Positions 3,461 through 39,235 of a stretch of 64,000 nucleotides of DNA are shown here, piece by piece. The notes below the pieces were generated by a model. It made no database searches, was not told the DNA's origin, and saw nothing but the letters and a program-made list of their open reading frames with translations. The stretch is from Eledone cirrhosa (lineage: Eukaryota): positions 38,130,001-38,194,000 of the forward strand of contig OZ024748.1 in the NCBI GenBank assembly GCA_964016885.1, in the 5' to 3' direction. Each line of letters starts with the position of its first letter. The stretch's first letter is position 1. Position numbers and translations under genes: made by a program.

Positions 3461-3523
3461 AGGCAATTCCTTACCAGTGGTTTCTTAAAGCAAAAAGCTT
3501 TGCTTTCATCATCAGAAAATCCT
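3461..3523 (-). ncRNA. Putative minimal type I hammerhead ribozyme (HHR-A)
   Basis: Minus strand: AGGAUUUU-CUGAUGA(3515-3509)-U-G-AAAGCAAA-gcuu-UUUGCUUU-A-A-GAAA(3484-3481)-CCACUGG-U-A-AGGAAUUGCCU. The core is intact, stem III is the near-palindrome ACCACUGGU and the triplet is GUA. Stem I is weak (G-U rich). Confidence 0.7.
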
Positions 3524-4028: not shown

Positions 4029-4351
4029 GATATTAATAAATGGAAACTATATTTATAAAACCATATTTATTTCATTATACATATTTCAGGGATACCAAAT
4101 TAAATTACGGTATGCCTTCATCAGACAAAATACAATATATAACAGTTTTACAAATAGGCTTTGACGTACCCTTTTAAAATGCAACCATTATTTTTGGAAG
4201 CCATGGCTTCCAAAAATGAAATAAATATGGTTTTATAAATATAGTTTCCATTTATTAATATCGTATATCTACTCCAAATACTTGTCGAGTGCTTTATATC
4301 AGTTATAAAAATATTTACTTGTTGTATCCCAACAATTTTAAATAGAACTTT

Positions 4352-4354: not shown

Positions 4355-4404
<50 letters not shown>
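4355..4404. repeat. (TA)n microsatellite
   Basis: Pure TA run separating two hammerhead-bearing elements. Confidence 0.97.
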
Positions 4405-4407
<3 letters not shown>

Positions 4408-4480
4408 GGAGGTGAGTTTTATGTTGATTTAAAACTGAACTATCCACAAGTGTTTTTTAATCTTTATATCATGTCTTCCC

Positions 4481-4549
4481 GTTTTATCTGATGAAAACAC
4501 AAATATTATTGCATGATGATATTTGTTTTTGAAATGCGCATAATAAAAT
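4481..4549 (+). ncRNA. Putative minimal type I hammerhead ribozyme (HHR-C)
   Basis: GUUUUAU(4481-87)-CUGAUGA(4488-94)-16-position stem II with one mismatch and a GCAU loop (4495-4530)-GAAA(4531-34)-UGCGCA-U-A(4542)-AUAAAAU(4543-49). Stem III is the perfect palindrome AUGCGCAU. Confidence 0.85.
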
Positions 4550-4808
4550 ACATGGAACTCTTTTAACCATCTTTTGTTCTTATATATTATATATATATGT
4601 ATGTACGTGTGTATATATGTATGATTGTGTGTATGTATGTATGTATATGTATGTGTGTATGGCTATGTATGTGTATGTGTATGCATATATATATATATAT
4701 TTATATTTATATATATATATGTATATATATGTGTGTGGTTGTATGTATGGATATGTTGATATTTATGTGTGTATGTATGTGTATATCTATGTGTATGTAT
4801 GTATGTAT

Positions 4809-37505: not shown

Positions 37506-37605
37506 TTTGAACAATTGTTTATACACGGATCAGAAGTCTGATATCAGAAGTGAAGGCCTGTAGGATGTTGTTATTGCCAGTACATGGAACTTGGCTCTAG
37601 TTGTT

Positions 37606-37657
37606 GAGTCATCTCATGAGCCTGAGAGAAACAGGCGAAACTCCACAGTAACAACTC
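37606..37657 (+). ncRNA. Degenerate type I hammerhead ribozyme (HHR-D), probably inactive
   Basis: GAGUCAU-CUCAUGA(G5 to C)-GCCUG-agagaaa-CAGGC-GAAA-CUCCACAG-U-A-ACAACUC. Stem I is restored to GAGUCGU/ACGACUC by reversing two CpG-to-CpA changes. Confidence 0.7.
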
Positions 37658-37735
37658 TCACTATATATCCTAGCCTTAATAAAATGAATATTTCAACTCT
37701 ACCTCCGTATTGAGTACTCTTTTCTCTCCGTCGTC

Positions 37736-37898
<163 letters not shown>

Positions 37899-37899
<1 letters not shown>

Positions 37900-38144
37900 T
37901 GGTACGCTTTCATCAGATAAAATACAAAGTTTGTTTCATAAATAGAGACATACTCATGAAAATCATACCCATGAAAAGCATACCTTATTGGTCGGAAATT
38001 CACTGGATTTATATGTTTTATAAATATAGTTTCCCTTTATTTAATATCATTGAATATTTACTCCATTAAACTGTTGAGTGCTCTAAATCAGTTATAAACA
38101 TTTATGTTTGTCTGACTTCCAACAAATTAAATACCACTTCTTCT
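37899..38144. mobile_element. Family B copy 3 (diverged), with a truncated hammerhead on the minus strand
   Basis: GGTACGCTTTCATCAGATAAAATACAA and ATGTTTTATAAATATAGTTTCC...GTTGAGTGCTCTAAATCAGTTATAAA...CCAACAAATTAAATA are collinear with 4109-4354. The minus-strand CUGAUGA at 37916-37910 is cut off within stem II by (TA)n. Confidence 0.75.
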
Positions 38145-38325: not shown

Positions 38326-38646
38326 ATAAAAAGGAATAATAGATACAATATACCTATTTTTAACTTTCGTCCCGACTGCACAGTTTCGCTGCAAAAATGT
38401 TATATCATAGATATGTAACATTGTTGTGAGGTAAGCCAGCTTATCAAGAGAGCACCTCAGGTATCTATTATTCCTTTTTATAATATTTTACATAACTCTG
38501 ATATTGTGTCAATTTAATTATTTCGATTATTTTGTCTCTCATAATCATAGAGTAACACTGGTTAAGGTTGACAACACACAATCTCACATACTTGTGAAAA
38601 ATGTGTATTTATATATACATGTATGTATACACATATATTTGTATAC
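38320..38646. mobile_element. Penelope pLTR/retrozyme-like element, family E, rearranged copy
   Basis: 38320-38460 is the reverse complement of ~38918-39067, and 38461-38646 is a direct copy of ~39041-39232. A 27-bp overlap appears as an inverted repeat (38320-38346 vs 38461-38487). Confidence 0.8.
38370..38451 (-). ncRNA. Putative U3-A8 variant hammerhead ribozyme (HHR-E2)
   Basis: Minus strand: UCUC-UUGAUAA-GCUG...CAGC-GAAA-CUGUGCAG-U-C-GGGA. Confidence 0.68.
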
Positions 38647-38776
38647 CTCTCATTATTGTCTCTAACTCCCTCACGGTAGAGTAACCACGGAAGTATAGTG
38701 ACTGCTTTCAAGCAAACACTATATACACTTCTAGTCAACCTTACCATCCTTCTGTACCCTATGTATCATATCAATA

Positions 38777-38892
38777 TCTCCCTCCGCCTTCTGAGATATT
38801 TTCACTGCTACAAGGGATTAATCCCCTTTCTTGACCGGTGTATCACGTGATAGAGTCTCCCTCCGCCTTTCTGAGATTTTCTCGCATGCTAC
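38777..38892. repeat. Imperfect ~36-bp direct repeat pair (79-bp spacing)
   Basis: TCTCCCTCCGCCTT(T)CTGAGAT...TGCTAC at 38777-38811 and 38856-38892. Confidence 0.85.
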
Positions 38893-38917
38893 GGACGTAT
38901 GTAGTTAGGGCTCTTCA

Positions 38918-39235
38918 CTGAGGTGCTCTCTTGATAAGCTGGCTTAGCTCAAAACAATATTACATATCTATGATATAACATTTTTGCATAGTGACCAGCG
39001 AAACTGTACAGTCGGGACTAAAGAAAAAAATAGGTATATTGTATCTATTATTCCTTTTTATAATATTTTACATAACTCTGATATTGTGTCAATTTAATTA
39101 TTTTGATTATCTTGTCTCTCATAATCATAGAACAACACTGGTTAAGGTCGACAACATACAATCTCATATACTTGTGAAAAATGTATGTTTATATATACAT
39201 GTATATGTATGTATGCACATATATCTGTATACTTC
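38918..39235 (+). mobile_element. Penelope pLTR/retrozyme-like element, family E, collinear copy
   Basis: Contains the hammerhead at 38927-39017 followed by ~220 bp of AT-rich 3' sequence ending in (TA)n. Highly similar to 38320-38646. Its 5' limit may extend further left. Confidence 0.72.
38927..39017 (+). ncRNA. Putative U3-A8 variant minimal hammerhead ribozyme (HHR-E1)
   Basis: UCUC-UUGAUAA(38931-37)-GCUGG-[52-nt insert]-CCAGC-GAAA(39000-03)-CUGUACAG-U-C(39013)-GGGA. Stem III is the perfect palindrome ACUGUACAGU and the triplet is the canonical GUC. Confidence 0.75.

Follow-up and report, generated by a model that had tools for sequence, protein, structure and literature searches.

The motif at 4481-4549 of the window, the whole 64-kb stretch of DNA analysed here (G000:C8:38130001-38194000 of a 3.0-Gb genome), is very probably best explained as a type I hammerhead in the 3' pseudo-LTR (pLTR) of a young, high-copy Penelope-like element (PLE) with Hydra-clade motifs, the window copy being solo, truncated, set in (TA)n and likely inert. 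The motif resembles the dimer-type hammerheads of PLEs; among the features tested, only the G10.1-C11.1 pair and an Rfam match are missing. The role of hammerheads in PLEs is described as still unsettled in the part of PMC8557442 used here. A single window copy adds little to this question, whereas the whole family is a useful test set, the two non-overlapping search patterns used below together giving more than 50,000 motifs in the genome.

Anatomy of the motif and predicted pairing through the palindrome

A pair-by-pair check of the letters agrees with the original prediction that the core nucleotides are intact, and CUGANGA, GAAA and NUH are arranged around a three-way junction whose open end lies in stem I, as in type I hammerheads. 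On the forward strand, the 5' strand of stem I (4481-4487) pairs with 4543-4549 in seven pairs, one of them G·U; stem I has 8 bp in the family, and C4480 breaks the eighth pair here. The core box C3-A9, CUGAUGA, occupies 4488-4494 and is followed by stem-loop II at 4495-4530, in which 4495-4510 pairs with 4515-4530 around a GCAU loop; the first pair is A-U, and the 16 positions comprise 13 Watson-Crick pairs, two G·U pairs and a conserved C4498·U4527 mismatch at pair 4. The claimed 7-bp stem I and 15-pair stem II with one mismatch are thus both confirmed letter by letter. The second core box, G12-A15.1 (GAAA), lies at 4531-4534, and the loop-less 8-nt palindrome AUGCGCAU at 4534-4541 is predicted to form stem III only with a second hammerhead; as DNA it reads ATGCGCAT and is perfect, as had been stated. 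A17 of the AUA triplet stands at 4542, and hammerhead numbering on the verified fold puts the predicted cut at 4542/4543. The 3' strand of stem I (4543-4549/4550) is followed by a distal CAUG (4551-4554), whose partner in the minimum free energy (MFE) fold, CAUG at 4470-4473, may be the 5' arm of a family-specific distal extension of stem I past a pyrimidine bulge. It has been reported that AUA is a natural cleavage triplet, though a slower one (PMC1636495, in part), and Mg2+-dependent self-cleavage after position 17 is predicted for the window motif from its modelled fold.

An Rfam search gave no match at gathering threshold and no hammerhead among the 33 matches at E <= 10, so Rfam misses a very abundant hammerhead variant. 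The overall stability of the fold against shuffles is unremarkable (z = -0.64). A hammerhead descriptor matched once across the 6,250 bases of the window that are not satellite, and all 1,000 dinucleotide shuffles were free of matches, although the descriptor is crude and a sister motif at 4068-4132 escaped it. The G10.1-C11.1 pair, highly conserved in hammerheads (PMC4209133), is absent from the window motif, stem II starting with A-U; the first pair of stem II is R-Y in 82 of 92 related motifs and G-C in 11. The pair is typical rather than defining, being missing from many of the listed Hydra hammerheads as well (PMC8557442).

By folding, the palindrome is predicted not to hold as stem III within one molecule but to be stable when two molecules pair. 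Closing a 2-bp stem III puts the monomer 5 kcal/mol above its MFE, the 8-bp palindrome duplex has -10.5 kcal/mol, and the double hammerhead of the window copy reaches -30.7 kcal/mol against -21.4 kcal/mol for two monomers. However, a dimer fold without stem I beats the double hammerhead in the window copy (-34.1 vs -30.7 kcal/mol, and also -39.9 vs -32.9 kcal/mol). When flanks are included, the co-fold MFE of another copy (L003) keeps the 8-bp stem III duplex and cross-paired stem I, and that of the window copy loses stem I; the probability of stem I in a 171-nt context is 0.02 for the window copy and 0.04-0.08 for a family copy. The original prediction of dimerisation via the palindrome therefore stands as to the missing stable monomer stem III and the stable duplex, but the partner is likely a second hammerhead on the same tandem transcript and not a separate molecule. 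A same-sense hammerhead lies just upstream in 13 of 24 loci that hold the 5' end of the ORF, and a second one lies downstream in all eight of those 13 loci that were fetched, at a spacing of 3.3-3.8 kb. On such a tandem transcript the two AUGCGCAU palindromes would pair into a shared 8-bp stem III, giving a double hammerhead; this would cut slowly after AUA, so that the unit RNA would be trimmed and possibly religated into a circle. The dimer design is not new: it was proposed that PLE hammerheads pair and cut weakly in tandem arrangement (PMC4209133; review PMC6765202), loop-less palindromes appear in PMC8557442 File S2, and cleavage as dimers through a palindromic, loop-less stem III is already on record for PLEs. 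No second copy or other part of the same family was found in the 64-kb window, and since the eighth stem I pair is also lost, cutting of the window copy, if any, would occur only in trans at high concentration.

Related motifs of sister families were collected with a further pattern, which leaves out motifs whose stem II begins with A and gave 39,299 matches against 114 for the control. That homologues keep the core and the pairing, as the original prediction required, is borne out: among nine hand-picked family representatives, 12 of 18 pairs are altered on both sides, a number reached in none of 500 shuffles, and 94% of positions are paired in the true alignment against 38-55% in slid controls. 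Stems I and II are supported by these compensatory changes. Variation within the family is 2.5-2.9% in the flanks and 0.2-0.7% in the stems, but it is not independent because most of it falls at shared subfamily sites. At stem II pair 4, 92 distinct motifs from 137 loci carry C·C in 57 and C·T in 31 (C·Y in 88 of 92) and are paired in one, whereas 83-88 of the 92 are paired at positions 1-3 and 5-7; these positions were unconstrained by the search, and the loci are biased to few families. Among 14 cluster representatives the C·Y mismatch occurs in 12. The stretch between the core boxes ranges from 22 to 42 nt across motifs, so the 15-pair stem II is family-specific and the mismatch is the common feature. 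One unpaired cytosine, a possible new stem II contact, is kept while the neighbouring pairs all swap. The conserved unpaired cytosine in a long stem II looks unreported: the combination is absent from the Hydra table of PMC8557442 that was compared and from the results of a narrow literature search, a scope too small to establish its absence from print; a narrow search for octopus Penelope hammerhead ribozymes returned PMC8557442 only. Of 79 distinct motifs, 71 carry a self-complementary 8-mer directly behind GAA, ATATATAT, ATGCGCAT and ATATGTAT being dominant, and 77 carry A17, counts that are partly biased by 30 loci from a pattern imposing an RYRY shape.

Several other hammerheads were observed in the window and nearby. 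The sister hammerhead at 4068-4132 (-), within 4030-4345, has the ATATGTAT palindrome, AUA and C·C at stem II pair 4, and its family counts 1,174 genome candidates, with a fold-back piece at 4215-4270; the inverted repeat 4030-4085/4215-4270 was considered as the end of a DNA transposon and rejected, as it represents this sister hammerhead family with its fold-back copies. In a third related family, a hammerhead at 37898-37925 (-) is broken inside stem II at (TA)n and has a short duplicated piece, and a near-identical copy lies just beyond the window at C8:38195695. Another hammerhead family at 3470-3520 (-) has A17 and a stem III region of odd length (9 nt), and in a degenerate hammerhead at 37598-37660 (+) stem II is short and G5 is replaced by C. 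Outside the window, near 39,968,500 of the same contig (L074:268-920, G000:C8), 12 units of 54 bp stand in tandem, each barely more than a bare hammerhead; a palindromic ACGT serves as the stem I strand for both neighbours, and some units lack G12. The array may represent a retrozyme-like satellite of minimal size or have arisen by local slippage.

The parent element and the copy in the window

The 186-bp stretch around the motif is a high-copy repeat with 728 candidates in the genome, the best 40 of which were scored at 97-100% identity. The intact-core pattern has 15,250 matches genome-wide, fold-back insertions being counted twice, against none for the reversed control, and thus the intact core is the family norm. 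The family is also present in four contig sets from sequencing runs, with subfamily variants. Upstream, longer copies continue into a long AT-rich 3' UTR and then an ORF whose last part is a GIY-YIG-type domain; downstream, they run about 90 nt further, to a fixed end beyond which (TA)n begins. Reverse-transcriptase (RT) motifs were found on walking up the ORF. One of the eight tandem loci (L102) holds an uninterrupted 797-aa frame with RWI, DKT, QFDI, YRDD, CxxC-EK and CxH; the CxCx5C linker is mutated in this copy and present in all three other copies shown (L046, L048, L049), and one Cys lies between LIY and YFG in the family protein. Homologues of the ORF number 153 at E <= 1e-10, all unnamed; among the 75 listed with at least 650 aa, DK[TS] occurs in 73, RW[KR] in 65, CxCx5C in 56 and the canonical CX2-5CxxC in 4, and the family protein has RWI at the aligned RWK place. 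A Pfam search with two pieces of the ORF found no family, and a PDB sequence search returned only weak matches to SET-domain proteins (E >= 0.046), which were rejected as unrelated; the assignment of RT and endonuclease (EN) therefore rests on the motifs and the unnamed homologues. Judged by these, the element would be an EN+ PLE whose single ORF encodes RT and a GIY-YIG endonuclease. The family shows the hallmarks of EN+ PLEs, namely partial tandems, inverted 5'-truncated copies and a one-sided tail, and inverted 5' pieces and one-sided tails have been reported as standard for PLEs (PMC8557442, in part). It also appears to have the defining features of the Hydra clade, in protein motifs and (TA)n insertion, a placement by motifs and not by a tree. 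Membership of Naiad/Chlamys was excluded, as the EN is C-terminal and not N-terminal and the protein has DKT and not DKA.

An unrelated open frame lies beside one family copy (L035:4321-6900, -); it spans at least 859 codons and carries non-LTR RT motifs, presumably L1/Tx1-like.

In the window, a (TA)25 microsatellite at 4355-4404, detected by TRF, forms the left-hand insertion target. It is followed at 4404-4422 (-) by an inverted 19-nt copy of the outer 3' end of the element, representing the one-sided tail, whose reverse complement is the 3' terminus of L005, L006, L018 and others, and this piece joins the forward piece by a 3-nt overlap at 4420-4422. The forward fragment at 4420-4590 (+), from the 3' UTR/pLTR of the Hydra-like Penelope element, is 97-100% identical to the best-scored copies; it begins 123 nt ahead of the cut, at the 5' hot spot of the family, and stops at the family's inner 3' end, 48 nt past the cut; in L033 and L102 the same sequence runs on upstream into the GIY-YIG-type ORF. 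A short (AT)4 right flank at 4591-4598 is succeeded by TATG/TG repeats. Consequently, the stretch of about 185 bp is not the independent unit it had been taken for but a truncated pLTR to which 19 nt of the element's 3' end are joined in inverted orientation, and the supposed (TA)n bracket holds on the left, with (TA)25, but not on the right, where only about four AT units precede TATG-type repeats. Compared with the majority of 59 other ungapped copies, the window copy differs at 4465 and 4480 only, and these differences are private or rare; C4480 is private to it, T standing in 59 of 59. The description of the motif as the best-preserved copy can thus be true at most inside the window. The window copy is likely a solo, truncated, slightly damaged insertion in (TA)n, and inert.

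The remainder of the window is dominated by repeats. A TGGT/GGTT satellite fills about 59 kb (5127-64000); its higher-order unit measures 51-55 bp, its strand skew is extreme, and it is broken at about 37.5-40.1 kb by repeat fragments. There, an inverted repeat of about 130 bp (approximately 38330-38460 and 38920-39060) and a direct repeat of about 170 bp (38465-38640 and 39045-39220) were recognised by eye; the repeats at about 38330-39220 are possibly another fold-back element. At 234-1505, a long AAC/AACAGT repeat grades into a CCA-rich repeat.

Copy ends and alternative readings

The ends of the copies avoid the predicted cut yet pile up at a fixed upstream site, which bears on whether the template is cut. 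Counts along the motif in the genome fall from 15,112 to 14,579 over a 4-nt control step (-3.5%) and further to 13,974 over the 4 nt across the cut (-4.1%); about 96% of the copies carrying the stem I 3' strand span the predicted cut, the same loss as in the control step. Among the first 30 contig 1 matches, the 3' end lies at the inner site (+43 to +53) in 13 and at the outer site (+136 to +138) in 15, and two run into the next unit; 10 of the same 30 copies have their 5' end at -120 to -130 and one begins exactly at the cut (L160), values near 367-378 in this mapping being indels of the reference and not ends. Genome-wide, the 8,541 matches at the 5' hot spot shrink by 80%, to 1,677, within a further 13 nt upstream, and a local check found that 10 of 17 copies stop there (59%), below the genome-wide value; a longer upstream pattern recovers 26 of 27 copies that do continue. 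The hairpins after both ends of the element are weak by folding (-3.3 and -6.0 kcal/mol). Since copy ends do not pile up at the cut, cleavage has left little genomic trace, and since nearly all copies (about 96%) continue through the cut and 5' ends cluster about 124 nt upstream of it, the templates were likely uncut or religated. The ends of the window copy (-123, +48) match common copy ends, so that it is a common product.

As a mechanism, it is proposed that the RNA template of most copies had either escaped cutting at this site or been religated there, with priming on nicked (TA)n at either of two UA-rich sites, about 48 or about 136 nt after the cut. In short copies, synthesis would stop at a fixed 5' end of the RNA, some 124 nt upstream of the cut and likely a transcript start, which is consistent with the internal promoter reported for Penelope (PMC2377424, in part). 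A fold-back at the CATATG palindrome is an alternative cause of the 5' hot spot.

It would be a rather unlikely extension of these results, though a conceivable one, that the architecture is an undescribed one, in which the long stem II with its fixed C·Y at pair 4 replaces loop II as a tertiary or protein contact, the ribozyme stays off until two copies pair, and uncut RNA starting 124 nt before the cut templates re-transcribable, mobilisable hammerhead mini-elements. Another reading holds that the conserved fold is kept for some other use, such as dimerising the RNA or presenting it to the RT of the element, and that cleavage in vivo is negligible. The passage of most copies across the predicted cut, as in the control step, agrees with this, as do the missing G10.1-C11.1 pair, the weakness of PLE hammerheads even as dimers, for which other functions are not excluded (PMC4209133), and the success of Naiads, which thrive without canonical hammerheads (PMC8557442, in part). 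However, slow cutting or religation would leave uncut-looking copies too, the copy L160 does begin exactly at the cut, AUA is a natural if slower triplet (PMC1636495, in part), and sister families with other stems keep A17 in 77 of 79 motifs together with both core boxes, although the boxes were imposed by the searches; we therefore give a purely non-cutting role a minor share of probability.

It is quite improbable, in our view, that the short unit is a self-propagating SINE- or retrozyme-like element with an internal promoter, forming trans dimers via the palindrome and being copied by the enzymes of its parent. The 5' boundary recurs in about 60-80% of the copies that reach it and there are two fixed 3' ends; Penelope has an internal promoter (PMC2377424) and animal retrozymes derive from pLTRs (bioRxiv 10.64898/2026.07.22.740005), both sources being used in part, and about 15,000 copies would make pairing in trans likelier. 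Yet no tandem array of the unit occurs in the loci read, the junctions vary by several bases and by 5' fusion, as expected of independent truncation products, and the two differences of the window copy from the family majority are private or rare. Finally, a chance look-alike in AT-rich, microsatellite-laden DNA, as the z of -0.64, the lack of an Rfam hammerhead and the mostly A-U stems might suggest, has a negligible probability given the absence of matches in 1,000 shuffles, the 15,250 vs 0 and 39,299 vs 114 counts against controls, the covariation, and the fixed position and sense relative to the ORF.

Comparison with known systems

The reading as a PLE hammerhead in a truncated pLTR agrees with what has been reported for the Hydra clade, which targets (TA)n and has its hammerheads close to the 3' end (Craig et al. 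2021, PMC8557442; this source is used in part throughout the comparison). As in Hydra-clade PLEs, the RT is followed by a C-terminal GIY-YIG domain, with DKT, CxCx5C, CxxC and CxH; insertion is into (TA)n, some copies form partial tandems and others are inverted, 5'-truncated and tailed on one side; and a type I hammerhead near the 3' end has a self-complementary stem III (3-4 bp in Hydra) and a position 17 within the A/U/C range. The protein start and the hammerhead differ from those of Hydra-1_Obim, which makes this a separate family. In addition, the family unit measures 3.3-3.8 kb, with a long 3' UTR, against less than 3 kb in Hydra; RWI replaces the RWK of Hydra; stem II has 15 pairs, while the listed Hydra hammerheads have 3-7; and 15.2-16.2 is U-A, whereas it is C-G in all listed Hydra motifs. 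An internal C·Y mismatch appears in none of the listed Hydra motifs, though their descriptor may not report one (PMC8557442).

Among other systems, the hammerhead of PLE-X1_cBra has a 4-bp, zero-loop palindromic stem III with the same geometry as AUGCGCAU; unlike the present family, Chlamys-2_cBra and PLE-X1_cBra are elements of the green lineage whose hammerheads have a 6-bp stem II and C17 (PMC8557442 File S2, in part). The family also resembles the metazoan non-LTR retrozymes and the satellite hammerheads of newt and axolotl, which are of type I, have a weak palindromic helix III, originate from pLTRs and cleave better as dimers (PMC7229834; bioRxiv 10.64898/2026.07.22.740005; both in part). 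In the same sources, retrozymes are tandem repeats of 170-400 nt, whereas the window unit is solo and comes from a coding element, and a non-LTR retrozyme was rejected on the single copy in the window and the lack of an array of the unit in the loci read. The small PLE hammerheads that cleave as dimers (Lunse, Weinberg and Breaker, as summarised in PMC6765202, in part) share the palindromic, very short stem III. Published PLE hammerheads are likewise of type I and situated in pLTRs, mostly in solo truncated copies and some in opposite-strand pairs, with a small palindromic helix III, predicted dimers and a helix II longer than usual; the family has the location of the dimer type, lying in the pLTR, sense to the ORF and duplicated in tandems, and the window copy is one of its solo members.
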